Positions 34,751 to 53,215 of a stretch of DNA of 64,000 nucleotides are shown one piece after another. The translations under genes were made by a program, and so were the position numbers. The notes below the pieces were generated by a model. The model was not told where the DNA came from and made no database searches. It saw nothing but the letters and a program-made list of their open reading frames with translations. The stretch's first letter is position 1. Each line of letters opens with the position of its first letter. The DNA comes from a virus. The DNA lies in IMG/VR virus record IMGVR_UViG_3300025687_000022. One strand, 5' to 3'.

Positions 34751-35332
34751 TTACCAGAATCTACCGGGGACATTTGTACCAAAGTCTTTATGAGCCCTGC
34801 AAGCCCAATAACCGGGTTTTGTTTTATCTTTTTTCTGATCGCACTTGTGCCTTGCAGCAAAACTTTTACGAGCTTCTGGGTCGTTCCAGTTGCCTTTTAG
34901 ACCACCTTTTGCGTCACCATAAGTAACTTTCTTGACATTACCTGTTTTTGGATCGCGAACATAAACTTTATATTTCTTTCCTGAACCAGTATTTTTGGTT
35001 GGCTTGTTTAGTGGCGGGTCTTTTTTCTTGGACTCTTCTTCTAAAACTTCATCGTACATTGGAAAATCAAGCGGGACTCTTTCACCTTCAAATATCGCCC
35101 ACTCACCTAAATCGGTATGCTTGAGGGTATGAAGATCAATTAACTGAGGATTAATTTCTTTATTCTCGTACATCTTTCTTGCTTCGTGAATAACACGAAA
35201 ATAGTTATCAGACCCAATACGATAAATATTTCTTGAAAAAGGAATCTTATTTTCAAGATGGTAGTCTACCATTTCAATAGCTTCGGTTTCTTCTTTAATT
35301 ATTTGCTTTAATTTAGCTTCTGTTATTTTCAT
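34751..35332 (-). CDS. Leader-bearing (MKIT class) protein with basic C-terminal domain
   Basis: MKITEAKLKQIIKEE; basic domain KKYKVYVRDPKTGNVKKV...RKSFAARHKC...GYWACR. Confidence 0.7.
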   Translation of the reverse strand: MKITEAKLKQIIKEETEAIEMVDYHLENKIPFSRNIYRIGSDNYFRVIHEARKMYENKEINPQLIDLHTLKHTDLGEWAIFEGERVPLDFPMYDEVLEEESKKKDPPLNKPTKNTGSGKKYKVYVRDPKTGNVKKVTYGDAKGGLKGNWNDPEARKSFAARHKCDQKKDKTKPGYWACRAHKDFGTNVPGRFW

Positions 35333-36354
35333 GGTTGGTTTCCTTTGGATACGTTTAAAACTTCCATAAAATGTTCGTATGCTGTGCCGTAGTATTCAGA
35401 AGATTGAAACAATCTTCGTAGTACTCGTGGCAGCGACTCACAGAAGGTGAGATCAAGGCTCGTCAGGTTCGTACAGCCCGCCAGACCGTCTACGTTCTCC
35501 AGCGACGTGCACCAGTAAGCGTCGAGGGTCGTCAGATTCGTACAGCCCGCCAGACCGTCTACGTTCTGCAGTGACCTACACCGGCTGAGGTCGAGGTCCG
35601 TCAGGTTCGTAAGCCCCTGGAGCCCGTCTACGTTCTGAAGCGACTTGCAATTGCTGAGGTCGAGACTCGTCAGGTTCGTAAACCCCTGGAGTGCATCTAC
35701 GTTCTGAAGCGACTTGTTCCCGGTGAGGAAGAGGCTCGTCAAGTTCGTAAGCCCCTGGAGCCCGTCTACGTTCTGCAGCGACGAGCACCTTTCGAGGTTG
35801 AGGTCCGTCAGGTTCGTAAGCCCCTGGAGCCCATTTACGTTCTGCAGCGACGAGCACCATCCGAGGTCGAGGCTCGTCAGGCTCGTGCAGCCCTTTAGCC
35901 CGTCTACGTTCTCCAGCGAATAGCAATGGTTGATGTCGAGGCTCGTCAGGCTCGTAAGCCCCTGGAGTCCGTCCACATTACGCAGCGAATTGCAATAGCT
36001 GAGGTCTATTTTTGTTGTAACGTTTAGTTCACGTAAGCCTGACAAGAAATTAACATTTTCTTCTTCTATATCTGACTCTGCAAACTGATCAATTACTTCT
36101 AGCTTTTTTAAGATTTCGCTATTTCCTGCTGGATCGCTGGCTTTAATTACGTCTTTGTACAGTAAATAAACCTCTACTCCTTGTGCAAACTCCCAAGGAT
36201 CATTTGAAGATAGAAGTCTTATTATTTTTTGTGCCGGCGTAAGTTCTTCCTCTTCTTCATAATCATAATCATCATCATATTCGTCTTCTTCAATAAGAAG
36301 CTTAACAACTTCTTCTTTGATGATCTGATTCAATTTTGATTTAGTTATTTTCAT
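35329..36354 (-). CDS. Leader-bearing LRR protein 1 (N-cap type A, about 8 repeats)
   Basis: MKITKSKLNQIIKEE leader; 23-aa repeats LxxLxLxxCxSLxNVDGL. Confidence 0.9.
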   Translation of the reverse strand: MKITKSKLNQIIKEEVVKLLIEEDEYDDDYDYEEEEELTPAQKIIRLLSSNDPWEFAQGVEVYLLYKDVIKASDPAGNSEILKKLEVIDQFAESDIEEENVNFLSGLRELNVTTKIDLSYCNSLRNVDGLQGLTSLTSLDINHCYSLENVDGLKGCTSLTSLDLGWCSSLQNVNGLQGLTNLTDLNLERCSSLQNVDGLQGLTNLTSLFLTGNKSLQNVDALQGFTNLTSLDLSNCKSLQNVDGLQGLTNLTDLDLSRCRSLQNVDGLAGCTNLTTLDAYWCTSLENVDGLAGCTNLTSLDLTFCESLPRVLRRLFQSSEYYGTAYEHFMEVLNVSKGNQP

Positions 36355-37208
36355 CCTTTTTTACCTGATTTTGATTTCTTGCCCCAATTTCCACGCTCTC
36401 CACAAGCTGATGGTGTTGGTCTGCAAGAAGGATATTTAGATCTTTTTTCATCTCCAGACCTACCGCATGGAGAGCACTTCTTTTTGCCTGTCTTTTCGTC
36501 CTTTCTGCAAGTGTTGCAATCAACCCAGCCACCTTTCTTTCCAGGTGCTCCTTTACGACCAAACCAATCGCGAAGAGAAGTTTCAGATGATGGCTTCTTA
36601 GTTAGTTTTCTTTTTTTTTCATTTAGCTCTTTTTGTATTTCTTCGTCAATAAGAGAACTAAGAAAATCTGCCTGAGAGCCATGCTTTTTAACAGAATCTT
36701 CAAGTTGACCAATAATTTCTTTTATTTTCTTAATATCTTGGTCGGACATTTCTTTGCTTTCAAAAACTTTATTTATTTCTTCATCAATTATTTGATCGAG
36801 ATGCTCAAAATCAATAGATTCTTTTTTGGAATTGCCCCAATTTTTAGCACCTACTTTACGACATTTAACAAGTGCCCCTGAAGCGTATGCAGATGGCCAA
36901 ACTTTATAACGAGATTTAACTTTATGATAACAAGCATCTTTCTTTCCTGAAGAATTCTTTTTCTTTTTTCTATCAGCTACCTTGCGAGCACGTTTCTTGC
37001 CCTTTTGTTGCTTTTTCTTTTTCTCGTTTATTTCTTCTTCCTCAAGAGTGGCGGTGCCTCCTGCTTTTTTATAAAGTTGAGATGCTTCTTCTTTTGAGAT
37101 CATGCCAAGTCGAAGCATTTTTTTAATAGCTTCTCTTTGCCTTTGTTTTCTTTCCTCGTTAGAACGAGTAATTTCTTCTTCGTTAATATCACCATATAAA
37201 TCTTGCAT
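36351..37208 (-). CDS. Lys-rich multidomain protein, probably head-associated and nucleic-acid binding
   Basis: KKDACYHKVKSRYKVWPSAYASGALVKCRK and LRDWF...GWVDC...KYPSCRP blocks separated by acidic LDQIIDEE-type linkers. Confidence 0.65.
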   Translation of the reverse strand: MQDLYGDINEEEITRSNEERKQRQREAIKKMLRLGMISKEEASQLYKKAGGTATLEEEEINEKKKKQQKGKKRARKVADRKKKKNSSGKKDACYHKVKSRYKVWPSAYASGALVKCRKVGAKNWGNSKKESIDFEHLDQIIDEEINKVFESKEMSDQDIKKIKEIIGQLEDSVKKHGSQADFLSSLIDEEIQKELNEKKRKLTKKPSSETSLRDWFGRKGAPGKKGGWVDCNTCRKDEKTGKKKCSPCGRSGDEKRSKYPSCRPTPSACGERGNWGKKSKSGKKG

Positions 37209-37264
37209 AGTTTTGGTATCCTTGCTTTAAATAGTTAGCAGTCAAAGGACAATACAAAAAAATA

Positions 37265-38197
37265 TTATCCTTTTAAAACTTCCATAAACTGCTCGTATGC
37301 TGTGCCACTGCTATCAGATTCAAACCTTTCTTGTAATTCTGGTGGTAGCGATGAGCACTCTATGAGGGAGAGGCTCGTCAGGTTCGTGCAGCCCTTCAAC
37401 CCATCTACGTTCTGCAGCGAATTGCAGAAGCCGAGGTTGAGGTACATCAGGTTCGTGCATTCCTTTAGCCCGTCTACGTTCTCCAGCGACTCGCAGAAGC
37501 TGAGGTAGAGGTACATCAGGTTCGTGCATTCCTTTAGCCCGTCCACGTTCTGCAGCGACTTGCACCTGTTGAGGTTGAGCCAATTCAAGTTCGTACAGCC
37601 CGCCAGCCCGTCTACGTTCTGCAGCAACTCGCATTTGTAGAGGTTGAGGTCCGTCAGGTTCGTGAGTCCTTGGAGCCCGTCTACGTTCTCCAGCGACGTG
37701 CACCCGTTGAGTTTGAGGCTCGTCAGGTTCTTGCAAAACCTTAAAAAATCAACGTTTGTGATAAAATCATTTGCAATATTAAGTCTCTCAATCTGATCAA
37801 GCATATTTTTAACACGATCAGATTTTTCAGCAAAATAGTTTAAAATCATCCCAAGTTGTTGCGGAACAATTTCTTGCGGAAGATCAAATCCTTGTGTAGT
37901 TATTGAATTACTTTTTGAGTCGAAAACGAAATGACTTGCAATTGTATCGATGAGTTGTTGATATTCGAGTTGTGAAAATCCAGGTTGTGGATCTTCAAGG
38001 GCGTCAAGAATTGAAAGACCTTGCTGTACATTAGCAGAATCATCTGAAATTAGAAGCTTGATTATTTTTTGTGCGTAAGTAAGTTCTTCTTCTTCGTAAT
38101 CATAATCATCATAATCATCATATTCGTCTTGTTCAACAAGAAGCTTAACAACTTCTTCTTTGATTATTTGCTTTAGTTTAGTTTTGGTGATTTTCAT
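37265..38197 (-). CDS. Leader-bearing LRR protein 2 (N-cap type B, about 5 repeats)
   Basis: Same leader and 23-aa LRR. Confidence 0.9.
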   Translation of the reverse strand: MKITKTKLKQIIKEEVVKLLVEQDEYDDYDDYDYEEEELTYAQKIIKLLISDDSANVQQGLSILDALEDPQPGFSQLEYQQLIDTIASHFVFDSKSNSITTQGFDLPQEIVPQQLGMILNYFAEKSDRVKNMLDQIERLNIANDFITNVDFLRFCKNLTSLKLNGCTSLENVDGLQGLTNLTDLNLYKCELLQNVDGLAGCTNLNWLNLNRCKSLQNVDGLKECTNLMYLYLSFCESLENVDGLKECTNLMYLNLGFCNSLQNVDGLKGCTNLTSLSLIECSSLPPELQERFESDSSGTAYEQFMEVLKG

Positions 38198-39144
38198 GGT
38201 TGGTTTCCTTTAGATGCATTTAAAGCTTTCATAAACTGTTCGTATGCTGTGCCGCTGCTATCAGTTCCAAAATATTTTTGCAATTTTATTGGCAGCGACT
38301 TGCACCCTTCGAGGCTGAGGCTTATCAGATTCGTGCAGTCCTCCAGACCGTCTACGTTCTGCAACGACTCGCACCTGTAGAGGTCGAGTTCCGTCAGGTT
38401 CGTGCATTCCTTTAACCCGTCTACGTTCTCCAGCGACTCGCACCCTTCGAGGGTGAGGTGCGTCAGGTTCGTGCATTCCTTTAGCCCGTCTACGTTCTGC
38501 AGCGACTTGCACCCTTGGAGGTCGAGGGTCGTCAGACTCGCACAGCCCCCCAGCCCATCTACGTTCTGCAGCTTATCGCACCCGTTGAGATAGAGGGTCG
38601 TCAGGTTCGAGCAGCCCTTCAGCGCGTCTACGTTCTCCAGCGACTTACATTCACTGAGGTCGAGCCACGTCAGGTTCGTAAGCCCCTCCAGCCCGTCTAC
38701 GTTCTCCAGCGAGTTGCAGAAGCCGAGGTCGAGCCTCCACAGGTTCGTAAGCCCCTGGAGTCCGTCCACGTTCTGCAGTGATTTGCACCCTTCGAGGATG
38801 ATTTTTTCTGTAACGTTTAGAACACTTAAGCCCGACAAGAAATTAACGTTTTGTATGTCTGGCGACCTTGCAAACTGATCAATCACTCTTAATTTTTCTA
38901 AGATCTGATTATTTCCTGCTGGATCGCTGGCTTCAATATCGTCTTTGAAAAGTAAATAAACCTCTAATCCTTGTGCAAAAGTGCCAGGATCAGGTGAAGA
39001 TAGAAGTCTGATTATTTTTTGTGCGTAAGTAAGTTCTTCTTCCTCTTCTTCGTAATCATAATCATCATATTCGTCTTGTTCAATAAGAAGCTTAACTACT
39101 TCTTCTTTGATGATTTGCTTTAAAGTTGCTTTAGTGATTTTCAT
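38194..39144 (-). CDS. Leader-bearing LRR protein 3 (type A, about 7 repeats)
   Basis: Same leader and 23-aa LRR. Confidence 0.9.
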   Translation of the reverse strand: MKITKATLKQIIKEEVVKLLIEQDEYDDYDYEEEEEELTYAQKIIRLLSSPDPGTFAQGLEVYLLFKDDIEASDPAGNNQILEKLRVIDQFARSPDIQNVNFLSGLSVLNVTEKIILEGCKSLQNVDGLQGLTNLWRLDLGFCNSLENVDGLEGLTNLTWLDLSECKSLENVDALKGCSNLTTLYLNGCDKLQNVDGLGGCASLTTLDLQGCKSLQNVDGLKECTNLTHLTLEGCESLENVDGLKECTNLTELDLYRCESLQNVDGLEDCTNLISLSLEGCKSLPIKLQKYFGTDSSGTAYEQFMKALNASKGNQP

Positions 39145-40040
39145 GGTTGGTTTCCTTTGGATGCATTTAAAGCTTTCATAAACTGTTCGTATGCTGTGCC
39201 GATGTGCTCAAAAGAATGAAAAGATCTTTGCAGTGCTCGCGGCAGCGACTCGCACCCGTTGAGGAAGAGGCTCGTCAGATTCGTGCAGCCCTTCAGCGCG
39301 TCTACGTTCTGCAGCGACGTGCACCCGCTAAGGTCGAGGCTTTTCAGGTTCGTAAGCCCCTGGAGCCCGCCTACGTTCTGCAGCGACTCGCATCTGTTGA
39401 GGTAGAGGGACGCCAGATTCGTACAGCCCTCCAGCCCGTCTATGTTCTGTAGCGACGTGCACCAGCTGAGGTCGAGTTCCGTCAGGTTCGTGCATTCTTT
39501 TAGCCCGTCTACGTTCTGCAGCGACTCGCACCCGCTGAGGTGGAGCCAATCCAGATTCATAAGCCCCTGGAGCCCGTCTACGTTCTGCAGCGAATCGCAC
39601 CTGCTGAGGTCGAGTTCCGTCAGGTTCGTGAGCCTTTGGGGCTCGTCTACGTTCTGGAACCCGTCTACGTTCTTCAGCGACTCGCACCCGCTGAGGTCTA
39701 TTTCTTCTGTGACGTTTAGATCACTTAAGACTGACAAGGAACCAACGTCTGGTATATCTGACCCTGCAAACTGATCAATCACTCTTAGCTTTTCTAAGAT
39801 TTGGCTATTTTCTGTTTGAGCGTTAGCTTCAATATCGTCTTTGACCAAAGAATAAATCTCTACTCCTTGTGCAAAAGTGTCAGGATCTTTTGAAGATAGA
39901 AATCTGATTATTTTTTGTGCCGGCGTAAGTTCTTCTTCTTCGTAATCATAATCATCATAATCATATTCGTCTTGCTCAACAAGAAGCTTAACAACTTCTT
40001 CTTTGATTATTTGCTTTAAAGTTGATTTGGTTATTTTCAT
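39141..40040 (-). CDS. Leader-bearing LRR protein 4 (type A, about 6 repeats)
   Basis: Same leader and LRR; one repeat has a partial duplication. Confidence 0.9.
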   Translation of the reverse strand: MKITKSTLKQIIKEEVVKLLVEQDEYDYDDYDYEEEELTPAQKIIRFLSSKDPDTFAQGVEIYSLVKDDIEANAQTENSQILEKLRVIDQFAGSDIPDVGSLSVLSDLNVTEEIDLSGCESLKNVDGFQNVDEPQRLTNLTELDLSRCDSLQNVDGLQGLMNLDWLHLSGCESLQNVDGLKECTNLTELDLSWCTSLQNIDGLEGCTNLASLYLNRCESLQNVGGLQGLTNLKSLDLSGCTSLQNVDALKGCTNLTSLFLNGCESLPRALQRSFHSFEHIGTAYEQFMKALNASKGNQP

Positions 40041-41089
40041 AATGAGTTCCTTTTAGATGCTTTTAGGGCTTCCATAAACTTCTCGTGTGCTGTGCCACTG
40101 CTATCAGTTGCAAAATATTCTTGCAATTCTGGTGGCAGCGACGAACACCAGCTGAGTTCGAGAATCGTGAGCTTTGTAAGCCCCTGGAGTGCATCTACGT
40201 TCTGCAGCGACTCGCAACCGGCGAGGTTCAGGGTCGTCAGGTTCGTAAGCCCTTGGAGCCCGTCTACGTTCTGCAGCGACGAGCACATGTTGAGGTAGAG
40301 GGTCGTCAGGTTCGTAAGCCCCTGGAGCCCATCCACGTTCTGCAGCGACTTGCACCCTTGGAGGTCGAGGGTCGTCAGGTTCGTAAGCCCCTGGAGCCCA
40401 TTTATGTTCTGCAGTGACTTGCACCCTCTGAGGTAGAGGGTCGCCAGGTTCATAAGCCCCTGGAGTGAATCTACGTTCTGCAGCGACGTGCACCCGCTGA
40501 GGTCGAGGGTCGTCAGGTTCGTGCAGCCCTCCAGCCCGTCTACGTTCTGCAGCGACGTGCACTCGTAGAGGTTGAGGGTCGTCAGGTTCGTGCAGCCCTT
40601 CAGCCCATTTACGTTCTGCAGCGACTCGCACCAGCCGAGGTTGAGGCGCGTCAGGTTCGTGCAAAACCTTAAAAAATCAACGTTTGTGATAAAATCATTA
40701 AGATAGAACACCAGATTCTCAATCTGAGCAAGCATATCTTTAAAATGATCAGATTTTTCAGCAAAATAGTTTAAAATCATCTCAAGGGTTTCATTTGGGA
40801 TCTTAAATCTTCGAATAGTTATTCTGCCGCCTGATCTAAAATCGATATAACTTGCAATTGTATCGATGAGTTGTTGATCTTCAAGAGCGTCAAGAATTGT
40901 AAGACCTTGTTCTACATTAGCAGAATCATCTGAAGATAGAAGCTTGATTATTTTTTGTGCCGGTGTAAGTTCTTCTTCTTCTTCTTCATAATCATCATCA
41001 TAATAATCATCATATTCGTCTTGCTCAACAAGAAGCTTAACAACTTCTTCTTTGATTATTTGCTTTAACTTAGTTTTAGTGATTTTCAT
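40037..41089 (-). CDS. Leader-bearing LRR protein 5 (type B, about 7 repeats)
   Basis: Same leader and 23-aa LRR. Confidence 0.9.
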   Translation of the reverse strand: MKITKTKLKQIIKEEVVKLLVEQDEYDDYYDDDYEEEEEELTPAQKIIKLLSSDDSANVEQGLTILDALEDQQLIDTIASYIDFRSGGRITIRRFKIPNETLEMILNYFAEKSDHFKDMLAQIENLVFYLNDFITNVDFLRFCTNLTRLNLGWCESLQNVNGLKGCTNLTTLNLYECTSLQNVDGLEGCTNLTTLDLSGCTSLQNVDSLQGLMNLATLYLRGCKSLQNINGLQGLTNLTTLDLQGCKSLQNVDGLQGLTNLTTLYLNMCSSLQNVDGLQGLTNLTTLNLAGCESLQNVDALQGLTKLTILELSWCSSLPPELQEYFATDSSGTAHEKFMEALKASKRNSL

Positions 41090-42255
41090 GGTTGGTTTCC
41101 TTTGGATGCGTTCAAAGCTTTCATAAACTTCTCATGCGCTGTGCTACTGTTATCAGATTCAAACAATTTTTGTAATCCTAATGGCAGCGACCTGCACCTG
41201 TAGAGGTCGAGGCTTTTCAGGTTCGTGCAGCCCTTCAGCCCGTCTACGTTCTGCAGTGACCTGCAATAGCGGAGGTCGAGGCTCGTCAGGTTCGTGCAGC
41301 CCTCCAGACCGTCTACGTTCTGCAGAGACTCGCAGAAGCGGAGGTCGAGGGTCGTCAGGTTCGTGCAGCCCTTCAGCCCGTCTACGTTTTCCAGCGAACT
41401 GCAATAGCGGAGGTCGAGGCTCGTCAGGTTCGTGCATTCCTTTAGCCCGTCTACGTTCTCCAGCGACTTGCACTCGTAGAGGGTGAGGGTCGTCAGGTTC
41501 GTGCATTCCTTTAACCCGTCTACGTTCTGCAGCGACCTGCACCAGCTGAGGTCGAGGGTCGTCAGATTCGTGCAGCCCTCCAGCACATCTACGTTCTCCA
41601 GCGACGTGCACCTGTTGAGGTCGAGTTTCGTCAGGTTCGGTAGGGACTTCAAGACACCGAGCGCCCCAAGAGACTGCAGCGCCGTGAACGTGCCTCCGCC
41701 GAGGTAGAGGGTCGTCAGGTTCGTAAGCCCCTGGAGCCCGTCTACGTTCTGCAGCTTCTCACACCAGTAGAGGTCGAGTTCCGTCAGGTTCGTACAGCCC
41801 GCCAACCCGTTTACGTTCTCCAGCGAATCGCACTCGTAGAGGCGCAGGATCGCCAGACTCGCACAGCCCTTCAGCCCGTCTATGTTCTGCAGTGACTTGC
41901 AAGAGCTAAGGTCTATTTGCTCTGTAATATTTATCTCTTTTAAACCTGACAAGAAGTCCACGTTTTGTATATCTGACAATGCAAACTGATCAATTACTTG
42001 TAGCTTTGCTATAATCTCATCATTTTCTGTTGGAGCGTTAACTTCAATTTCGTCTTTGACCAATGAATAAATCTCTACTCCTTGTGCAAAAGTGTCAGGA
42101 TCATTTGAAGATAGAAATCTTATTATTTTTTGTGCGTAAGTAAGTTCTTCCTCATCATCATAATCATCATAATCATCATATTCGTCTTGTTCAATAAGAA
42201 GCTTAACAACTTCTTCTTTGATTATTTGCTTTAACTTAGTTTTAGTGATTTTCAT
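41086..42255 (-). CDS. Leader-bearing LRR protein 6 (type A, about 10 repeats, one atypical)
   Basis: Same leader and 23-aa LRR. Confidence 0.9.
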   Translation of the reverse strand: MKITKTKLKQIIKEEVVKLLIEQDEYDDYDDYDDEEELTYAQKIIRFLSSNDPDTFAQGVEIYSLVKDEIEVNAPTENDEIIAKLQVIDQFALSDIQNVDFLSGLKEINITEQIDLSSCKSLQNIDGLKGCASLAILRLYECDSLENVNGLAGCTNLTELDLYWCEKLQNVDGLQGLTNLTTLYLGGGTFTALQSLGALGVLKSLPNLTKLDLNRCTSLENVDVLEGCTNLTTLDLSWCRSLQNVDGLKECTNLTTLTLYECKSLENVDGLKECTNLTSLDLRYCSSLENVDGLKGCTNLTTLDLRFCESLQNVDGLEGCTNLTSLDLRYCRSLQNVDGLKGCTNLKSLDLYRCRSLPLGLQKLFESDNSSTAHEKFMKALNASKGNQP

Positions 42256-43307
42256 GGTTGGTTTCCTTGCATAATAGCATTTCTTAGATCATTATTTATT
42301 GTTTTACACAGATACCTGCCTTTTAATCCAAGTCTTTGCCAATTTTGAAGCCAATAAGACTCTAACTCTTGAGGAATATATCCGCATCTTTCGCTAGCAC
42401 CAGTTGTAGGATTAATTTCTTTATTTCCGTTTGTTGAATCAAGAATGCGAAGATACATATCATAAATATTTGCTTTTTCTTGTTCGGAAGTATTAGCTTC
42501 TATCCAATCATAAAGGCTGTTGAAGTTGAGCAAATCTTCACGCGAAATAGGAGCCCCATAAATTTTTTGAAGCAGCTGTAGAGCCTCTGAAGGGCTGTGA
42601 GCGACCTTTTGACCTGTGCTTTTATCAAATACGCCCTCTACGTGGTTAAACGAATAGTTTTTGGCTCCAAACATAGACAAAACAAGCTGTGTTCTATGTA
42701 AGCCTTTTAACATTGGTTGTGTTTCAGAGGGAAAATCAGAAAAATAAGAAAAAGTAAGCCAATTTTTGTTTCCAAGCATCCAATCCATTTGAACACCGAT
42801 ATCTTGTTGCTCTCCAGCTTCATTATGTTGAGGAAAAAGAGTGAACATGTTGCCAGGACGCACTTTTTTTAAATCACTAATGATTAAAGTAGAGTTCTCG
42901 CCAATATATTTGGCAAGTTCGTATAAAAATGCTCTTAACTCAACTTGTTCTGGCGTTGCTGTTCTTGCACGCTTAACAAATCTTTGATAAGTTGCTTTCC
43001 AGTCGTCTGGGTTTAAATTCCAGCTTTGTAGAGCCTCATCAGTAACCTTTTTATCTGGAAAAAGATCAGAAACATCAACAGCAAGGTCAATATCGCCTGA
43101 TTTTGCTTTTTTGCCGACTGATCCAAGGGGCTCAAAAGTTTGAAATAAACTAGAATGCTGCGGAAACAGCCTTGATAGCTCTTCATAATACTTTTCAAGT
43201 GTTGGCTGAATATAACCAAGAGGAATTGGACCTACAGATTGGTCCTGAAAAACATTTCCACCTTCTGTAATCAAAAATCTCCTCCAATTTTCAAATAACT
43301 TTTGCAT
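42252..43307 (-). CDS. Leader-bearing Pol-beta-superfamily nucleotidyltransferase
   Basis: Leader MQKLFENWRRFLITE; LGSVGKKAKSGDIDLAVD (hGS...DxD) with a third Asp in VQMDW. Confidence 0.75.
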   Translation of the reverse strand: MQKLFENWRRFLITEGGNVFQDQSVGPIPLGYIQPTLEKYYEELSRLFPQHSSLFQTFEPLGSVGKKAKSGDIDLAVDVSDLFPDKKVTDEALQSWNLNPDDWKATYQRFVKRARTATPEQVELRAFLYELAKYIGENSTLIISDLKKVRPGNMFTLFPQHNEAGEQQDIGVQMDWMLGNKNWLTFSYFSDFPSETQPMLKGLHRTQLVLSMFGAKNYSFNHVEGVFDKSTGQKVAHSPSEALQLLQKIYGAPISREDLLNFNSLYDWIEANTSEQEKANIYDMYLRILDSTNGNKEINPTTGASERCGYIPQELESYWLQNWQRLGLKGRYLCKTINNDLRNAIMQGNQP

Positions 43308-43349
43308 TTCTATAATAATCCTAAAATTAAATCAACCAAAGCTTCTACA

Positions 43350-43904
43350 TCATCTGGATTGGGCTTTATGTTCAATATTTTCTTGTAAATATTCATCATA
43401 ATCAGCAGAATCTTCAAAAGCTTCTGTTGCCGTCTTGATATTTTCTGGTTTTAAAGCTATTTTCCACTCTTTTCCATCTCTGCGAGCACCATACATAGCA
43501 GAACTACCAGGAATTTCTGGATCTGAATAAAAAACAATCCCTGGTGGTATTTGCATATCACTTACAGACACTATTAGTAGATCGTACTCTTGTGGATCGC
43601 CAGAAGATATACCCCCTATGATCGCATCAATTTGTCCAGACCGCGAAAATGCTTGACCAAGTGCTTCGTTAAAGTCTTTAAAAAAATAAATACGATATTC
43701 TATCTCGCCTTTTTCATTTCGATAGAATTTATCTTTATCTTTAGGCTTATTATAAGATTTTAAAGTGTCAGCACGCACTTTTGTAACGTGATAAATCGGG
43801 GATCCGACCATATCTATATTACCAAGCCGTTCTCCAAAATTTGAGAACGGCTCTTCAACGCCTTCTTTTAAGAAAATTCTCCAAGAATCATAAATTTTTT
43901 TCAT
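43350..43904 (-). CDS. Leader-bearing protein with ART/Tpt1-like fold features
   Basis: Likely start MKKIYDSWRIFLKE at 43904; IYHVT...RIYFF...FYSDPE...KPENI pattern. Confidence 0.45.
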   Translation of the reverse strand: MKKIYDSWRIFLKEGVEEPFSNFGERLGNIDMVGSPIYHVTKVRADTLKSYNKPKDKDKFYRNEKGEIEYRIYFFKDFNEALGQAFSRSGQIDAIIGGISSGDPQEYDLLIVSVSDMQIPPGIVFYSDPEIPGSSAMYGARRDGKEWKIALKPENIKTATEAFEDSADYDEYLQENIEHKAQSR

Positions 43905-44370
43905 TTTTAAGTCTCTCAAGTTCTTTTTCTAATAAATAGACATTAAAAGTTGTTTGGGAAAGACTTTTATCACTCTTTAATTGTTCTATTGAAGCCCATT
44001 TTGAATCGTTATGCTCAACAAAACCAGATTCTGGATTTTTCTTGAATTTTATTTGACCTGACCAATCGCGAGTAAAGTAATAATAACGAATATAATCTTT
44101 AAATTCTTCTTTTGAAGCGTATGTTACGTTATTTTGATCGCATTTTAAGTTTGTTTCTTCTTTTAACTCACGAACAACGGCTTCCTCAAAAGAAGAATCG
44201 TCTAAATCTACGTGACCTCCTGGCAAATCCCAATAATTTTTCATTATTGGTGCCGTATTAGTTCGTTTTATGATCAAAATCTTGTCATTTTTGTCTAAAC
44301 AAACCAAGCTAACAACATCATCACGACCTTTTTTCATTTTGATCATGATTTTTATCATTTCAGACAACAT
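43888..44370 (-). CDS. NUDIX hydrolase
   Basis: WDLPGGHVDLDDSSFEEAVVRELKEETNL Nudix box. Confidence 0.9.
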   Translation of the reverse strand: MLSEMIKIMIKMKKGRDDVVSLVCLDKNDKILIIKRTNTAPIMKNYWDLPGGHVDLDDSSFEEAVVRELKEETNLKCDQNNVTYASKEEFKDYIRYYYFTRDWSGQIKFKKNPESGFVEHNDSKWASIEQLKSDKSLSQTTFNVYLLEKELERLKNEKNL

Positions 44371-44371
44371 T

Positions 44372-45115
44372 TTATCTGCAAACTCTCATTTTTAAATCTG
44401 TCATTTGGCAAAAATCAACCAAAGCGTTGTCTAAATCAAGAACTTGTATTGGTTGAACCCAAATAATGTCCCCAACGACCTGTAAATTTGGTTGCCATTC
44501 GACATCGACACCCCAAAGAATACCAACTAAGTCGCCATTATCGTCATAGACGACAGATCCAGACGATCCAAACCAGCCGTAACTATGCATAATTATCTGA
44601 ATTCCGGTATCCCCCGTCGTTTCATAGCCAGCAACACGACCTCTAAAGGTCATAATTTCGTGAGTTGAGGGAAAACCAGAGTAAGTTATTTCCTCTCCTA
44701 CGTTCATTTGCTTTTTGCGTGGAGAATATCTAATCGGTTTTGCATTTTGCAAGTCAGCAACAGGATAAACAATAGCGATATCATAAACTGGATCTGCATA
44801 AATAAGCACCCCAGGCATAGCTTCATTACCATGAGTGATCAAAAATAGTTTTCCGATCTCATTTCCAGTTACATGCTTTGCTGTTAAAATAAAATTTGAG
44901 CCTTTATACCTGATCAGGGAACCAGATCCGTGACCTTGCCCAATACTTAAGACTCTAACCGCAGCATTTCGCACTTGCATTTCAACTTTAGACGAAATTT
45001 CTGATACAGGAAAGACCCCTTCAATTAGATTTTCGTCAGAAAATGGCAACTGAAGGGGCTCAGAGTGAGCCTGAGTTCCAAAAAGCAAGCAAAAAGCAAA
45101 AAGTAATTTTTTCAT
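44372..45115 (-). CDS. Trypsin-like serine protease with signal peptide
   Basis: Signal peptide MKKLLFAFCLLFGTQAHS; catalytic triad LTAKHV, YDIA and GSSGS. Confidence 0.85.
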   Translation of the reverse strand: MKKLLFAFCLLFGTQAHSEPLQLPFSDENLIEGVFPVSEISSKVEMQVRNAAVRVLSIGQGHGSGSLIRYKGSNFILTAKHVTGNEIGKLFLITHGNEAMPGVLIYADPVYDIAIVYPVADLQNAKPIRYSPRKKQMNVGEEITYSGFPSTHEIMTFRGRVAGYETTGDTGIQIIMHSYGWFGSSGSVVYDDNGDLVGILWGVDVEWQPNLQVVGDIIWVQPIQVLDLDNALVDFCQMTDLKMRVCR

Positions 45116-45141
45116 TTATTGTTTCTCCCACAATAAATAGA

Positions 45142-45612
45142 TTACAGGGCTCTTATTTGCGTTTCCATCCAAGCATTTGCCTGAGAATGTGTATCAAAAA
45201 GAGGGGAAAATCCAGATAGATACCTTAGAGTTGCCCCCTCTACCGCAGCCCATTGCCACTTCCAGCTACTCTCAGAACAAAATACAAGAGCAGAAGACAC
45301 GGAAGACATTTTAGATGCTTTAATATTCATAGGCGAAGCATGCATTTGAAGAATCTGGTTGCACTTCTTAAGGTAAACAGGGTCTTGCTGCGGTGTATCC
45401 TGCTTATTTTCTTTAATTTCTTCTCTTTCTTGCGGAAGATCTGCGCGGATAATGGTATATTTTGAACGACGCTGTTTTGTAGTAAACTCTTGATAAACGT
45501 TAAGCTTAAAAAAAGTTTCTGCGTTATTATCATCTTCGATCTCAAAAGAAGTCATTGGTGACTTTGCGCGCTGCCCAGACTTAAAAATCTTGTATACGTT
45601 CCATGTACTCAT
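45142..45612 (-). CDS. Hypothetical protein
   Basis: ORF track. Confidence 0.55.
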   Translation of the reverse strand: MSTWNVYKIFKSGQRAKSPMTSFEIEDDNNAETFFKLNVYQEFTTKQRRSKYTIIRADLPQEREEIKENKQDTPQQDPVYLKKCNQILQMHASPMNIKASKMSSVSSALVFCSESSWKWQWAAVEGATLRYLSGFSPLFDTHSQANAWMETQIRAL

Positions 45613-45943
45613 TTTGCACTCCTTCGATTGATTGCCATTTTAATATACCAAGAATGATCGAAGTCTGCAAGTGTTTTTCTTCAATAAATCGATAAAAAGC
45701 AAAATTTGTTCGTTTTTCTAAGGGACCATACCAGATAATCTCCCAAAAAACATGATCTTCAAATTTCATGCTTTCTTTATGTTCGCATGACAAAAGAAGA
45801 CCAATATTACCTCCGATTATATCAATAATAATATCTCCGTTTGACAGCTTTATTTTTTTTGCTTCTTTTTCTAGCGCTTCTCTTTCCAATTTTTTACAAT
45901 AATAACCATTGATTAGTAGAAATAGAATTGTAATATTTTTCAA
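45581..45943 (-). CDS. Hypothetical protein
   Basis: ORF track; start uncertain. Confidence 0.5.
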   Translation of the reverse strand: MKNITILFLLINGYYCKKLEREALEKEAKKIKLSNGDIIIDIIGGNIGLLLSCEHKESMKFEDHVFWEIIWYGPLEKRTNFAFYRFIEEKHLQTSIILGILKWQSIEGVQNEYMERIQDF

Positions 45944-46124
45944 TGGAAATAAAATCTGTTTGTTCTTGGGCTGGCAGTTTTAAAGGAAGCGGTTGATTAT
46001 CTCCAACAACAGTAGAAGGAATTAGTTTTTGATATTCTGTTCTTTCGTGGTTGTTGATTAACAATAAGTTGAAAAAGTAAAATAAAATACTCATTGTTAT
46101 AAATGTTGCTATAAATGTTCTCAT
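45894..46124 (-). CDS. Small membrane-anchored protein
   Basis: N-terminal hydrophobic helix; AGGA RBS. Confidence 0.5.
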   Translation of the reverse strand: MRTFIATFITMSILFYFFNLLLINNHERTEYQKLIPSTVVGDNQPLPLKLPAQEQTDFISIEKYYNSISTNQWLLL

Positions 46125-46144
46125 TTTATATTTTCCTGCCTTGG

Positions 46145-48070: not shown

Positions 48071-48101
48071 AAATTTATCCCTTTTTACAGTAGATAGTAT
48101 C

Positions 48102-48866
48102 TTATCTTTTTGAAAGAGCTTTTTTTAGTCTTTCATTAATAACATTACGATGGTGCCAACGTGATTTTTTGGTTATGTTTTTCTTTAAGATTTTAGATAC
48201 TCTTTCGTTCATTTCTTTGATAAGATCTGCGTGTTCAACCTCATCTAATTCTTCAGTTTCTTCAGTTTCTTCAGAATTATCAGGTTCAAATGGATATTCT
48301 GAGTCAAAGAAAGGAATAACAAATTTACGAGACAACCTTTGAACCGGAGGTCCAGCGCTGGGACCACCTTTTGGATAAGCCATAGTATACATTCTGGAAC
48401 CCCCAGGCTCTTGTGAATAATAATCAGATCTAAAATCAGCTTTATCGCCAGTTAAAACAACATCTCTTCTCTGTATTGTTTCGCCGGTATCACAAAGAAT
48501 ATATTCGTATATCATTTTACCGTCTTGCATAGAACCCCAAATAACAGCTTCTTGTCCGAATTCTTTGCCAAATTGTAAAATCTCATCACGAGCAACATTT
48601 GGAATAATAAAAGATCTTTCTTCATTTCCAAATTTACCACGGATTCGCCTGTAGCCAATCTTCATACTTTTTAGCTTGTCTTCAAACTGCCTTAGAAGTG
48701 CGTCGTTCTCTTGTTTTGATAATTCTTCGGCATTTGGGTTTTCTGAGGTCATGATACCGACAGATTGTATGGTTGGTCTTTGCCCTGTTATAATTCTAAT
48801 AATGTCTCTAAATTGAGATTCTTCATTTAATAAAAACTTTTTCCATTCTGTTATTATTTTTTTCAC
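48102..48866 (-). CDS. Leader-bearing DUF3293-like protein
   Basis: Leader MKKIITEWKKFLLNEE; GIMTSENP...EN...GKFGNEERSFII...FGQEAVIW. Confidence 0.65.
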   Translation of the reverse strand: MKKIITEWKKFLLNEESQFRDIIRIITGQRPTIQSVGIMTSENPNAEELSKQENDALLRQFEDKLKSMKIGYRRIRGKFGNEERSFIIPNVARDEILQFGKEFGQEAVIWGSMQDGKMIYEYILCDTGETIQRRDVVLTGDKADFRSDYYSQEPGGSRMYTMAYPKGGPSAGPPVQRLSRKFVIPFFDSEYPFEPDNSEETEETEELDEVEHADLIKEMNERVSKILKKNITKKSRWHHRNVINERLKKALSKR

Positions 48867-48884
48867 ATCATGCTCCTTTTAAAA

Positions 48885-48914
48885 TAATATAACTTTATTA
48901 TATCGCTGTGTCAA
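48885..48914 (-). promoter_or_regulatory. Sigma70-type promoter
   Basis: Minus strand TTGACA-N17-TATATT followed by AGGAG. Confidence 0.65.
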
Positions 48915-48950
48915 TAAAATTTACTTTTCTATAAGTTCTTGAATTGAGCC

Positions 48951-49844
48951 TTAGTTTCCTTTGGATGCGTTTAAAGCTTTCATAAACTGTTCGTGTGCTG
49001 TGTCGTATTCATCAGATTTAAACAAATCTTGTAATCCTAATGGCAGTGACGCGCACCTGCGGAGGTCGAGGGTCGTCAGGTTCGTGCATTCCTTCAGTAC
49101 GTCTACGTTCTGCAGCGACTTGCACCAGTTGAGCTTGAGCGTCTCCAGGTTTGTGCATTCCTTTAACCCGTCTACGTTCTGCAGCGACTCGCACCAGTAG
49201 AGGTAGAGGTACGTCAGGTTCGTACAGCCCTCCAACCCGTCTACGTTCTGCAGCGAATCGCACTCCCAGAGGTTGAGGGTCGTCAGGTTCGTACAGCCCT
49301 TCAGTCCGTCTACGTTCTGCAGCGACTCGCACCCCCAGAGTTCGAGGCTCGTCAGGTTCGTGCAAAACTTTAAAAAATCAACGTTTGTCATAAATTTATC
49401 TTTAATATTAAGACTCTCAATCTTAGCAAGCATATATTGAACACGAGAAGATTTTTCAGCAAAATAGTTTAAAATCATCCAAAATGTTACATTTGAGACT
49501 TCAAAACCTTGAATAGTTATTAAACTACTTTTTGAGTCGAAAGTGAAATGACTTGCAATTGTATTGATGAGTTGTTGATATTCGAGTTTGAGCCGTTGAT
49601 ATTCGAGTTGTGAAACTCCAGGTTGTGGATTTTCAAGGGCGTCAAGAATTCCAAGACCTAGATTTACATATTCAGGATCAGGTGAAGATAGAAATCTGAT
49701 TATTTTTTGTGCTTCAGTAAGTTCTTCTTCTTCTTCTTCTTCTTCTTCTTCTTCTTCATCATAATCATCATATTCGTCTTGTTCAATAAGAAGCTTAACA
49801 ACTTCTTCTTTGATGATTTGCTTTTTAGTTTTAGTTATTTTCAT
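48951..49844 (-). CDS. Leader-bearing LRR protein 7 (A/B hybrid N-cap, about 4 repeats)
   Basis: Leader lacks one residue (MKITKTKKQIIKEE); 12-Glu run; LRR. Confidence 0.9.
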   Translation of the reverse strand: MKITKTKKQIIKEEVVKLLIEQDEYDDYDEEEEEEEEEEEELTEAQKIIRFLSSPDPEYVNLGLGILDALENPQPGVSQLEYQRLKLEYQQLINTIASHFTFDSKSSLITIQGFEVSNVTFWMILNYFAEKSSRVQYMLAKIESLNIKDKFMTNVDFLKFCTNLTSLELWGCESLQNVDGLKGCTNLTTLNLWECDSLQNVDGLEGCTNLTYLYLYWCESLQNVDGLKECTNLETLKLNWCKSLQNVDVLKECTNLTTLDLRRCASLPLGLQDLFKSDEYDTAHEQFMKALNASKGN

Positions 49845-50560
49845 GGTTGGCTTCTCTTAGATGCGTTCAAAGCTTCCATAAACTTCTCGTATGCTGTGCC
49901 ACTGCTATCAGTTTTAAACAATTGTTGTAATTTTATTGGCAGCGACCTGCACAGCCAGAGGCTGAGGCTCGTCAGGCTCGTAAGCCCCTGGAGCCCGTCT
50001 ACGTTCTGCAGCGAATAGCACCCGGCGAGGCTGAGGCTCGTCAGGCTCGTAAGCCCCTGGAGCCCGTCTACGTTCTGCAGCGACTTGCAGAAGCTGAGGT
50101 AGAGTCTCGTCAGGCTCGTGCATTCCTTTATCCCGTCTACGTTCTGCAGCGACTCGCAATCGCTGAGGTCGAGGGTCGTCAGGCTTGTAAGCCCCTGGAG
50201 CCCGTCTACGTTCTGCAGCGACGAGCACCAGCGGAGAACTATTTTTTCTGTAATATTTAGCTCACTTAAGCCTGACAAGAAGTCAACATCTTGTATTTTT
50301 GACTCTGCAAACTGATCAATTACTTTTAGCTTTTCTAAGATCTGATCATTTTCTGTTGGAGCATTAACTTCAATATCTTCTTTCAATTGGGTATAAAAAG
50401 ATAATGCTTGTGCAAAGTAACCAGGATCATTGCCGCTTAAACGATCTAGAATTGTTAACGCATATTGTTTATATTCATTTTCTTGATCTTCATTTTCTGT
50501 TAAAAGTTTGGTTACTTCTTCTTTGATTATTTGCTTTAGTTTAGTTTTGGTTATTTTCAT
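49841..50560 (-). CDS. Leader-bearing LRR protein 8 (divergent type A, about 4 repeats)
   Basis: Same leader and LRR; lacks the DY-rich tract. Confidence 0.9.
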   Translation of the reverse strand: MKITKTKLKQIIKEEVTKLLTENEDQENEYKQYALTILDRLSGNDPGYFAQALSFYTQLKEDIEVNAPTENDQILEKLKVIDQFAESKIQDVDFLSGLSELNITEKIVLRWCSSLQNVDGLQGLTSLTTLDLSDCESLQNVDGIKECTSLTRLYLSFCKSLQNVDGLQGLTSLTSLSLAGCYSLQNVDGLQGLTSLTSLSLWLCRSLPIKLQQLFKTDSSGTAYEKFMEALNASKRSQP

Positions 50561-50563
50561 AAT

Positions 50564-51304
50564 TTATCTATCCCATACAGAATGATTTAGCCATCTATTT
50601 TTTATATCCTCAGCTTCATCTGATGTAACTATTCCGCTTTGGACTTGGTTATGTAAATAGTTTTGTATTAGCTCTTCGATACTTTTTTGTGATTTTGATG
50701 CCTCTGCTCTAAATCCTATTAAAAATGCAGGAGTCTCGCAAGCGCTTGTAAAATACTCATACATTGAATTATATTCTTTTGTTGGCAGATAAGTGCAATT
50801 TGGTCGCTGAAAAGGTCTACCATCTTGAGTAAAATGATGAAGCTCGTGCGCCACAACATTAAATAGCTCATTTTCAATTGAAGCGATGTTGGAACCAGAT
50901 AAGAAAAGTCCCGGTCTAATAGTAAAATCAACAATAATCTTGCCACCATCCTCAGAATAGTCTGAAGCACCATCTATATTCCAGCCAACATGATTGCTGT
51001 CAAAATTGGTTGGAGTAAAAATAACTTCTACTTCAAATGCAGGTATAGCATCCTCATAGTTATCACTCCAGACTTCAACATCAACAGGATAATCCCAAGA
51101 ATAAAAGAAAGTTTTTTTATGTTTTGTTTTCTTTCCAGTTGCTGGTAGTATTTTTAAAATATCTTCAACGATTTTTTCTACTGTTTCTTTATAATAAAAA
51201 TCAGCATCTTGTAATCTAAACTCTGGAAACTCCATATCAACCTCCAATAAGTTTAATATTTCTTCTTTGATTATTTGCTTTAAATTTGATTTGGTTATTT
51301 TCAT
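50564..51304 (-). CDS. Leader-bearing (MKIT class) zincin-like metallopeptidase
   Basis: MKITKSNLKQIIKEEILNLLE; VAHELHHFTQ...YFTSACETPAF. Confidence 0.7.
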   Translation of the reverse strand: MKITKSNLKQIIKEEILNLLEVDMEFPEFRLQDADFYYKETVEKIVEDILKILPATGKKTKHKKTFFYSWDYPVDVEVWSDNYEDAIPAFEVEVIFTPTNFDSNHVGWNIDGASDYSEDGGKIIVDFTIRPGLFLSGSNIASIENELFNVVAHELHHFTQDGRPFQRPNCTYLPTKEYNSMYEYFTSACETPAFLIGFRAEASKSQKSIEELIQNYLHNQVQSGIVTSDEAEDIKNRWLNHSVWDR

Positions 51305-52278
51305 GGTTGGCTTGTCTTAGATGCATTTAAAGCTTCCATAAACTTCTCGTGTGCTGTACCGCTGCTATCAGTTCCAAAATATTTTTGCAATTTTATTGGC
51401 AGCGACTTGCACTCTTCGAGGCTGAGGCTTATCAGATTCGTGCAGCCCTCCAGCCCGTCTACGTTCTGCAGCGACTCGCACTCGTAGAGGTCGAGGTTCG
51501 CCAGGTTAGTGCAACCCTCCAGCCCGTCTACGTTCTGCAGTGACTCGCACCCGAAGAGGCTGAGGCTCGTCAGGTTCGTGCAGCCCTTCAGCCCGTCTAC
51601 GTTCACCAGCGACCTGCAATAGCTGAGGTCGAGGCTCGTCAGGTTTGTGCATTCCTTTAGCCCGTCTACGTTCTGTAGTGACTCACACCCGTTGAGGTCG
51701 AGGGTCGTCAGGTTCGTGCATTCCTTTAGCACGTCTACGTTCTTCAGCGATGAGCACCCGGTGAGGTAGAGGGTCGTCAGGTTTGTGCAGCCCTCCAGTC
51801 CATCCACGTTCTGCAGCGACCCGCAATAGCTGAGGTCAAGCTTCGTCAGGCTCGTAAACCTCTGGAGTGCATCTACGTTCTCCGGCGATTTGAGTCCCTT
51901 CAGCCCGTCTACGTTCTTCAGTGATCTGCACCCTTTGAGGATGATTTTTTGTGTAACGTTTAGTTCACGTAAGCCTGACAAGAAATTAACATTTTTTTCT
52001 TTTATATCTGAATCTGCAAACTGATCAATTACTTCTAGCTTTTCTAAGATTTGGCTATTTTCTGTTGGAGCGTTAGCTTCAATATCGTCTTTGACCAAAG
52101 AATAAATCTCTACTCCTTGTGCAAAAGTGTCAGGATCAGGTGAAGATAGAAATCTGATTATTTTTTGTGCCGGCGTAAGTTCTTCCTCTTCATAATCATC
52201 ATATTCGTCTTGCTCAACAAGAAGCTTAACAACTTCTTCTTTGATTATTTGCTTTAAATCTGATTTAGTTATTTTCAT
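51301..52278 (-). CDS. Leader-bearing LRR protein 9 (type A, about 7 repeats)
   Basis: Same leader and 23-aa LRR. Confidence 0.9.
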   Translation of the reverse strand: MKITKSDLKQIIKEEVVKLLVEQDEYDDYEEEELTPAQKIIRFLSSPDPDTFAQGVEIYSLVKDDIEANAPTENSQILEKLEVIDQFADSDIKEKNVNFLSGLRELNVTQKIILKGCRSLKNVDGLKGLKSPENVDALQRFTSLTKLDLSYCGSLQNVDGLEGCTNLTTLYLTGCSSLKNVDVLKECTNLTTLDLNGCESLQNVDGLKECTNLTSLDLSYCRSLVNVDGLKGCTNLTSLSLFGCESLQNVDGLEGCTNLANLDLYECESLQNVDGLEGCTNLISLSLEECKSLPIKLQKYFGTDSSGTAHEKFMEALNASKTSQP

Positions 52279-53042
52279 GGTCGGCTTCCTTTGGATGCAT
52301 TTAAAGCTTTCATAAACTTCTCGTGTGCTGTGCCTCTGTTATCAGTTTTAAACCATCGTTGTAATTCTGATGGCAGCGAATAGCACATGCTGAGGTCGAG
52401 GGTCGTCAGGTTCGTGCAGCCCTCCAGCCCGTCTATGTTCTTCAGCGACGTGCACCAGCTGAGGTCGAGGCTTTTCAGGTTCGTGCAGCCCTTCAGTCCG
52501 TCTACGTTCTGCAGCGACTCGCACGCGCCGAGTTCAAGGTACGTCAGATTCGTGAGTCCCTGGAGCCCGTCTACGTTCTCCAGGGACGTGCACCAGTTGA
52601 GGTTGAGTCCCCTCAGGTTCATGCAAAAACTTAAAAAATCAACGTTTGTCATAAATTCATCTGTAATATCAAGATTCTCAATCTGAGCAAGCATATTTTT
52701 AACATGAACAGATTTTTTAGCAAAATAATTTAAAATCATCCCAAGTTCTTGCGGAAGATCAAATCCTTGTGTAGTTATTGAAGCACTTGTTGGGTCGAAA
52801 TCGATATAACTTGCAATTGTATCGATGAGTTGTTGATCTCCAAGGTCGTCAAGAATTCCAAGACCTAGCACTACATTAGCAGAATCATCTGAAGTTAGAA
52901 GCTTGATTATTTTTTGTGCGTAAGTAAGCTCTTCTTCTTCGTAATCATAATCATCATAATCATCATATTCGTCTTGCTCAACAAGAAGCTTAACAACTTC
53001 TTCTTTAATTATTTGCTTTAAAGTTGATTTGGTTATTTTCAT
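52275..53042 (-). CDS. Leader-bearing LRR protein 10 (type B, about 3 repeats)
   Basis: Same leader and 23-aa LRR. Confidence 0.9.
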   Translation of the reverse strand: MKITKSTLKQIIKEEVVKLLVEQDEYDDYDDYDYEEEELTYAQKIIKLLTSDDSANVVLGLGILDDLGDQQLIDTIASYIDFDPTSASITTQGFDLPQELGMILNYFAKKSVHVKNMLAQIENLDITDEFMTNVDFLSFCMNLRGLNLNWCTSLENVDGLQGLTNLTYLELGACESLQNVDGLKGCTNLKSLDLSWCTSLKNIDGLEGCTNLTTLDLSMCYSLPSELQRWFKTDNRGTAHEKFMKALNASKGSRP

Positions 53043-53187: not shown

Positions 53188-53215
53188 AAAAAAAAGCGTA
53201 CCTTATCGGTACGCT
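53188..53215 (-). terminator. Intrinsic terminator downstream of thyX
   Basis: AGCGTACC-N5-GGTACGCT stem followed by a T-run on the minus strand. Confidence 0.8.

Follow-up and report, generated by a model that had tools for sequence, protein, structure and literature searches.

Known phage counter-defence proteins are mostly single-purpose inhibitors. The injected cargo of phage T4 includes inhibitors of host defence, and the only feature common to its diverse injected anti-restriction proteins is a capsid-targeting propeptide of 10-19 residues that is cleaved after Glu (PMC3012670, PMC9026906). Leucine-rich repeat (LRR) proteins are also known from phages: Goslar carries LRR/beta-helix and carbohydrate-binding domains for host recognition on a shared N-terminal module (PMC13742148), a vibriophage tail module holds one diverse, weakly LRR-like gene (PMC10945359), and the prophage LRR effectors GogB and SspH are known from the literature. 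Here we describe ten paralogous LRR genes (LRR1-LRR10) in a stretch of 64,000 nucleotides (nt; hereafter the window) of IMGVR_UViG_3300025687_000022, a large uncultured estuarine phage, which was compared with related contigs (L numbers) and related proteins (P numbers). LRR1-LRR10 form a germline multigene family and encode small, acidic, Cys-rich LRR solenoid proteins. A first-pass annotation, made from the nucleotide sequence, had read them as a diversified set of binders resembling the variable lymphocyte receptors (VLRs) of lampreys and knew of no such expanded repertoire in a tailed phage; our survey of the literature and of phage databases likewise found no expanded LRR family described in one.

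Repeat architecture and variability

All ten open reading frames (ORFs) were recovered on the minus strand (Table 1) and matched Pfam LRR_4 with E values of 1e-12 to 4e-29, bearing out the first-pass claim of ten paralogs of one architecture in three locations. Each protein begins with a 22-residue leader and a linker, followed by a helical N-cap, by 3-10 Cys-type LRRs of exactly 23 residues and by a C-cap helix. The leader, acidic tract and caps proposed earlier hold overall, with three corrections: the leader of LRR7 is one residue short, the linker is acidic in nine of the ten paralogs, LRR8 being without the D/Y/E tract, and the N-caps fall into two unrelated classes, A (LRR1, 3, 4, 6, 8 and 9) and B (LRR2, 5, 7 and 10). 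The repeat anchors are spaced by exactly 23 residues, with local irregularities in LRR4, LRR6 and LRR9 only.

The family holds 60 units in total, 54 of which are full core units, and the repeat consensus is LTxLxLxxCxSLxNVDGLxGCTN. Across the core units the entropy was 2.4-3.0 bits at repeat positions 3, 5, 7, 8 and 10, 1.5 bits at position 2 and 0.9-1.9 bits at positions 13, 19, 20 and 21, and it stayed below 0.6 bits at most of the remaining positions (maximum 0.81), which is the constant framework with a hypervariable face that had been predicted. The expected enrichment of aromatic and charged residues was also seen, the concave positions being dominated by S, D, E, T, Y, N, G, R and W, with Y, W and F together accounting for 18%. 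All 54 core units are unique, and they present 53 distinct concave signatures.

In the classification of Kobe and Kajava, the cysteine-containing (CC) LRR subclass has Cys in place of Asn at position 9, units of about 26 residues and an intracellular location. The phage repeats fit this subclass in having Cys at position 9 (53 of 54 units), whereas their 23-residue unit differs from the length of about 26. The proteins contain 6-18 Cys each, have isoelectric points (pI) of 4.1-4.7 and lack a signal peptide; so many Cys without a signal peptide favour an intracellular role over one on the virion surface.

Structure and fold comparisons

LRR3 was modelled with AlphaFold2 (AF2) from a 41-sequence family alignment, and the model reached a predicted local distance difference test (pLDDT) score of 92.5 and a predicted template modelling (pTM) score of 0.87. 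From N to C terminus, the leader forms a helix (residues 5-25, at lower confidence) and the acidic linker is disordered; the helical N-cap then leads into a regular solenoid, which a C-terminal helix caps. The beta-strands correspond to repeat positions 3-5, so that the variable positions are predicted to lie on and just past the concave sheet, where the first-pass annotation had put them. The LRR_4 matches, the AF2 solenoid and the Foldseek matches place the proteins in the leucine-rich repeat superfamily, and Foldseek returned generic LRR solenoids only (internalins, FBXL2 and Roco LRR). PADLOC gave nothing for the LRR or leader-tagged proteins, and the ESM Atlas gave no usable match for the N-terminal part.

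By sequence, the nearest solved structures are the LRRs of the plant TNL proteins RPP1 and Roq1; PDB matches to VLR-based repebodies (E 1e-7 to 1e-11) cover the repeats only. Among NCBIfam models, Internalin A (41.7 bits against a curated cutoff of 1600) and XopL (45.6 against 500) scored far under threshold, and a weak sub-cutoff match to XopAC was also obtained. The plant matches, the XopL and XopAC hits and the precedent of prophage-encoded LRR effectors might point to effectors directed at eukaryotes, of the GogB/SspH or Ralstonia GALA type, serving a eukaryote-associated bacterial host. Such a role seems very improbable given that all family scores are so low and that no F-box, NEL domain or secretion signal is present; moreover, the closest relatives come from free-living aquatic bacteria and phage contigs, and the genes belong to a large lytic-type phage from estuarine plankton in which the same leader is found on unrelated phage cargo.

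Selection on the concave face

Rates of nonsynonymous (dN) and synonymous (dS) substitution were calculated by the Nei-Gojobori method with Jukes-Cantor correction for the concave and framework partitions of the repeat units. The ratio dN(concave)/dS(framework) was 2.99 in the window (bootstrap 95% interval 2.17-3.79) and 2.89 (2.14-3.85) in L007, a divergent phage relative, whereas framework dN/dS was 0.17 and 0.15, respectively. By these ratios the framework is under purifying selection. Diversity at the variable codons (2, 3, 5, 7, 8 and 10) lies mainly at codon positions 1 and 2, whereas the framework codons are near-uniform, with a single Leu codon used in 52 of 54 units and a single Asn codon in all 54. 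Since variable and constant codons interleave within 27 nt, gene conversion would be unable to homogenise one set alone; the contrast between concave face and framework therefore argues for selection for amino-acid change on the concave face. As far as sequence comparison can tell, the solvent-exposed concave residues are under diversifying selection while the rest of the repeat is constant down to codon choice.

The first-pass annotation had named a dN/dS well below 1 at the concave positions as evidence that would speak against a diversified set of binders. The ratio found is not below 1, and concave codons that change at about three times the framework synonymous rate support such a set. 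Concave residues are identical between strains of 99.9% identity, and ortholog dN/dS between strains is powerless because only 0-2 substitutions per gene are present.

The array is genuine

No k-mer of at least 80 nt occurs twice in the LRR regions, so unique assembly of the array is possible. Proteins identical to those of the window are found on many contigs (LRR9, P0001, on 17; LRR5 on 3 independent ones; the 193-residue neighbour on 20), which together derive from 11 or more samples in JGI, ENA and Logan. The 118-kb contig L044 is 100% identical to the window over a six-gene block, and L046, L009 and L010 have the same gene order at 99.98-99.99% identity. Together, k-mer uniqueness and independent contigs at 99.98-100% rule out the concatenation of strain variants, which the first-pass annotation had raised as a concern, as well as mis-joined repeats.

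A search for a mutagenic mechanism revealed no convincing reverse transcriptase motif in the window (two weak YxDD-type matches) and no adenine bias. A diversity-generating retroelement (DGR) comprises a reverse transcriptase and a template repeat and produces adenine-specific variation, whereas in the window variation peaks at non-adenine positions and is absent between strains. Repeats do assemble poorly, and many contigs end within the array; yet the allele junctions described below share 13-33 nt only, far under the assembler k of 141. That the array is an assembly artefact, or its variation the work of a DGR, can hardly be credited.

Recombination of units, genes and blocks

Variation in copy number and repeat number, which the first-pass annotation had proposed to look for, is real and was seen between contigs. 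Structural differences between otherwise identical strains are confined to the LRR genes. LRR1 occurs as alleles of 341, 318 and 295 residues, the shorter ones without unit 8 or without units 5 and 6, and LRR10 as alleles of 255 and 232 residues, the latter containing a hybrid unit with its crossover in the constant segment. A 253-residue allele of LRR4 (P0005) is without two units, and P0003 is a recombinant allele that follows LRR3 through unit 3 and then continues into an LRR5-type C-cap. Each of the unit junctions measured (LRR1 and LRR10 alleles) falls within 13-33 nt of identical framework DNA.

Larger rearrangements were found at the level of gene blocks. The 113-kb contig L008 is without the whole block of LRR6, 5, 4, 3 and 2 plus a 285-residue gene (5.9 kb), and its sequence passes from identity with LRR6 to identity with LRR1 within 33 nt of identical leader DNA. 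In L045, from the same sample, the block is present at 99.56% identity with other LRR genes, of an L007-like lineage, on both flanks. The block boundaries coincide with a junction-plus-leader cassette, in which the last codons of the preceding gene provide the ribosome-binding site and its stop overlaps the next start. Across the family, the closest N-cap partner differs from the closest C-cap partner in all ten genes, and for 47 of the 54 units the most similar unit is located in another gene. L007 carries four tandem LRR genes, including a complete 349-residue gene at 2327-3376 that the public gene call missed, and L025, L027 and L028 have LRR arrays of other composition. Homologous recombination in the constant repeat DNA thus creates new variants by adding, removing or hybridising whole units, and recombination in the conserved junction and leader does so by deleting, duplicating or exchanging genes and multi-gene blocks between co-circulating phages.

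Leader and possible capsid delivery

The class-A leader, MKITKxxLKQIIKEE plus seven residues, is carried in the window by the ten LRR genes, a 193-residue protein and a 246-residue HExxH protein, and beyond the window by a kinase-like protein in L007 and by other bodies (P0173 and P0176). In all class-A leaders, (I/L)-x-E motifs end at residues 14 and 22 (13 and 21 in LRR7). A short N-terminal leader common to unrelated phage proteins is likewise found in T4-type capsid-targeted internal proteins, and the class-A leader resembles a T4 capsid-targeting propeptide in its form. By analogy with T4, the leader would most likely load the LRR proteins into the prohead and be cut off after an (I/L)-x-E site, and the mature binders would enter the next host together with the DNA; injection of this kind is plausible.

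Alternatively, the LRR proteins may be made and act in the infected cell, in takeover or anti-defence, without being packaged, the leader and junction forming a cassette for translation initiation and recombination. Rich in A, the leader DNA combines with the preceding tail codons to give a ribosome-binding site and the ATGA overlap; recombination demonstrably uses this DNA; the proteins differ from T4 internal proteins in being very acidic; and LRR10, which follows a terminator-like hairpin, may start its own transcription unit. A pure nucleotide cassette, however, needs no 22 conserved residues, and the leader is kept at the protein level on unrelated bodies, distant contigs included, as a predicted helix with Glu-type cleavage motifs at fixed positions. 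We consider a purely intracellular, unpackaged role possible, if somewhat unlikely.

A location on the virion surface is also conceivable, where the proteins would be docked by their N-terminal helix on tail or capsid as adhesins or receptor-binding modules, in the manner of the Goslar DUF7941 fibre cloud or of a multi-tailspike phage. Goslar sets the precedent of binding domains on a shared N-terminal module (PMC13742148), the vibriophage provides a diverse LRR-like gene in a tail module (PMC10945359), and gain and loss of binders between strains would suit host-range variation. The 6-18 cysteines of the phage proteins are free, though, in Cys-type LRRs typical of intracellular proteins, and the leader, of only 22 residues, is found on enzyme-like proteins (HExxH and kinase-like) too. 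The LRR3 model contains no trimerisation or fibre domain, and the neighbours of the LRR genes serve nucleotide metabolism or accessory functions, tail genes being absent from the vicinity, all of which makes surface adhesion a doubtful explanation.

A second leader class, MK.LFENW..FL.E, with an (I/L)-x-E-like end, was observed on five unrelated non-LRR proteins interleaved with the LRR genes (33603-34739, 42252-43307, 43350-43919, 26748-27317 and 48102-48866), one of which is a DUF3293 protein. The metagenomic protein P0175 (296 residues) carries a class-A-like leader with acidic tract twice, at its N-terminus and again internally, perhaps as the product of a fusion between two tagged genes or of read-through.

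Origin of the repeat DNA

The repeats have a GC content at third codon positions (GC3) of 0.81-0.86, whereas GC3 falls to 0.19-0.37 in the N-terminal part of those genes and to 0.22-0.30 in the genes around them; framework codon use is the same in L007 as in the window. A leaderless homolog, P0013, was identified on L017, a contig of 67% GC, and L021 encodes a variant 93% identical to P0013, with one extra unit and flanks of 73% GC, the two contigs pointing to a genome of about 70% GC. Both genes are GC-rich throughout and use the framework codons of the phage, and P0013 carries the irregular insert of LRR6. The high-GC homologs share 80-85% nt identity with the phage genes over 360-450 ungapped nt, about the same as between phage paralogs. 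The simplest reading, which we infer from the composition and similarity of these sequences, is that the phage captured its repeat module from a high-GC cellular lineage. A homolog search seeded with P0013 yielded no named cellular relatives, and a pattern scan of genome contigs gave two remote LRR matches only, with patterns too narrow for the detection of donors.

Leaderless LRR proteins of the same 23-residue repeat type, with AT-rich codons, were also observed on contigs of 28-35% GC (L018 and L034-L037), and in one group among them a C-terminal motif is conserved. This repeat type is thus spread widely across genomes that differ greatly in composition.

Distribution of the family

An exhaustive search of 1.84 billion representatives with leader plus N-cap returned 16 matches, 13 of them true family members, and a word-indexed search gave about 45 clusters with the full architecture, all metagenomic. 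The LRR family was found neither in INPHARED (tblastn of deposited phages) nor in IMG/VR, nor as a family in PHROGs. PhoH of the phage has less than 37% identity to its best match in any cultured phage. New here are the whole-unit differences between strains, the loss and transfer of a block, the junctions in framework or leader DNA and the GC-rich repeat DNA.

Gene content and surroundings

The six LRR genes of cluster 1 (35329-42255) are interrupted only by the basic 285-residue gene, and the four of cluster 2 (48951-53042) have the 246-residue gene between them; most LRR genes share an ATGA start/stop overlap with a neighbour. For the 246-residue HExxH protein, family searches gave no match, and a single-sequence AF2 model had a pLDDT of 50 and an unusable fold.

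Table 1. Position and features of the LRR genes and associated elements in the window
Feature	Position	Strand	Residues	Description
193-residue non-LRR protein	34751..35332	-	193	Class-A leader; identical protein on 20 contigs
LRR1	35329..36354	-	341	Class-A leader, acidic tract, N-cap class A, 8 units + capping unit
Mobile block (LRR6, 5, 4, 3, 2 + 285-residue gene)	36196..42256	-		Missing in one strain, found in other phage context
285-residue gene, inside array	36351..37208	-	285	Basic (pI 9.7), Cys-rich C-terminus, no leader; phrog_727 (function unknown); travels with 5.9-kb block
LRR2	37265..38197	-	310	N-cap class B, 5 units
LRR3	38194..39144	-	316	N-cap class A, 7 units; paralog modelled (pLDDT 92.5)
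LRR4	39141..40040	-	299	N-cap class A; 6-residue insert behind unit 1
LRR5	40037..41089	-	350	N-cap class B, 7 units
LRR6	41086..42255	-	389	N-cap class A, 9 units + irregular 28-residue insert, shared with P0013
LRR7	48951..49844	-	297	N-cap class B, 4 units; leader 1 residue short
LRR8	49841..50560	-	239	N-cap class A, 4 units; without D/Y/E tract
246-residue non-LRR protein	50564..51304	-	246	Class-A leader, HExxH motif; between LRR9 and LRR8
LRR9	51301..52278	-	325	N-cap class A, 7 units
LRR10	52275..53042	-	255	N-cap class B, 3 units; first gene past terminator-like hairpin
Terminator-like hairpin	53195..53215	-		After ThyX, upstream of LRR10

A near-consensus sigma-70-type promoter (11/12 matches) was detected at 48886-48914, upstream of the DUF3293 gene, and together with the hairpin at 53195-53215 it suggests that the two LRR clusters are in separate transcription units. 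Between the clusters lies a gene for a trypsin-like serine peptidase (44372-45115; Pfam Trypsin_2, E 7e-16) with a signal-peptide-like N-terminus, adjoined by a NUDIX hydrolase gene (43888-44370). The repeat DNA also contains alternative-frame ORFs of 100-186 residues on both strands, rich in Arg, Pro, Ala and Glu (35576-35926, 37320-37736, 40104-40664, 41159-41611 and others). These long ORFs are shadow ORFs from GC-rich repeats and not genes.

Discussion

The explanation that best joins these results is a germline, diversified and recombining family of LRR proteins that bind host proteins, are loaded into the capsid by their leader and have repeats of high-GC origin, and as a whole we give it an even chance of being right. 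Engaged in an arms race with the host, the proteins would act inside the cell as binders of host proteins that vary; defence proteins are plausible targets, as the first-pass annotation had suggested, and its proposal of delivery from the virion is likewise plausible. Several observations weigh against this explanation. The dN/dS values compare repeat units and paralogs, not orthologs, and the units are non-independent; concave dN is near saturation; and near-identical strains show almost no point changes, giving no direct measure of ongoing selection. The LRR proteins are strongly acidic, in contrast to the small, basic internal proteins of T4. Transfer between the phage and the high-GC genome has its direction read from composition only, and a single capture event leaves it unexplained that the class-B N-cap, although homologous, is AT-rich in the phage.

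More tentatively, the family may form a combinatorial binder system at the level of the phage population, in which the framework and the junction and leader are kept, down to synonymous sites, as recombination handles. Modules, genes and blocks would be reshuffled among co-infecting phages, possibly with a cellular homolog, and the products would be packed into the capsid and, once injected ready-made, inhibit variable defence proteins of the host in the manner of antibodies. In this full form the proposal is unlikely.

Were the family to function as such binders, it would represent a different counter-defence strategy, a heritable repertoire of generic binders in place of one lock per key, and the combination of leader and LRR would be a sequence-readable marker for such repertoires in metagenomes. 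Small LRR scaffolds would be available from it as a natural library, and the steering of recombination by constant repeat DNA could be studied in a tractable case. If the leader loads the capsid, the sequence itself would tell which proteins this phage group injects.

Comparison with known systems

Repeat-protein families with several of these features occur in other viruses and in bacteria. The ankyrin, FNIP/IP22 and LRR families of giant viruses are likewise tandem paralogs of repeat binders that arise by duplication and recombination, but their hosts are eukaryotic; a comparable LRR expansion in a tailed phage was not found in the literature searched. Ralstonia GALA, Xanthomonas XopL/XopAC, Listeria internalins and the Salmonella prophage proteins GogB/SspH also comprise multiple LRR paralogs in which the concave face sets the target, and some are phage-borne. 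Unlike these effectors and adhesins, the genes described here lack an F-box, NEL domain, signal peptide and cell-wall anchor, and they form tandem arrays in a lytic-type phage and carry a phage-specific leader. In Goslar (Chimalliviridae), about ten DUF7941 proteins join a shared N-terminal module to varied binding domains, including LRR/beta-helix domains (PMC13742148); there the module is a folded domain on external fibres, whereas here it is a 22-residue helix in front of Cys-rich LRRs, with no fibre or tail context.

Lamprey and hagfish VLRs share with the phage family the LRR solenoid, the concentration of diversity at concave positions 3, 5, 7, 8 and 10, and the joining of LRR modules through short homology in their constant part. 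As a mechanism, however, the VLR or antibody likeness put forward in the first-pass annotation did not hold. VLRs are assembled somatically from an incomplete germline gene and have disulfide LRRNT/LRRCT caps, a signal peptide, a stalk, cytidine deaminase and 24-residue LRRV units; the phage genes are complete germline ORFs that vary at the population level, show neither a convincing reverse transcriptase nor an adenine bias in the window, and have 23-residue units, helical caps without Cys clusters and none of the other VLR features. Because no DGR or somatic process was found, the comparison is an analogy only.

T4 provides the comparison for the leader. The phage leader differs from that of T4 in sequence and is longer (22 residues, with two candidate sites), and its cargo is acidic and not basic; moreover, T-even phages have no ten-member repeat-protein family, which is the dominant cargo here. 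As in T4 IPI, IPII, IPIII and Alt, on the other hand, a short leader is the sole common feature of unrelated proteins and ends in (I/L)-x-E, the form cut by T4-type prohead proteases, and, as with the internal-protein loci of T-even phages, the loci are polymorphic between close relatives.

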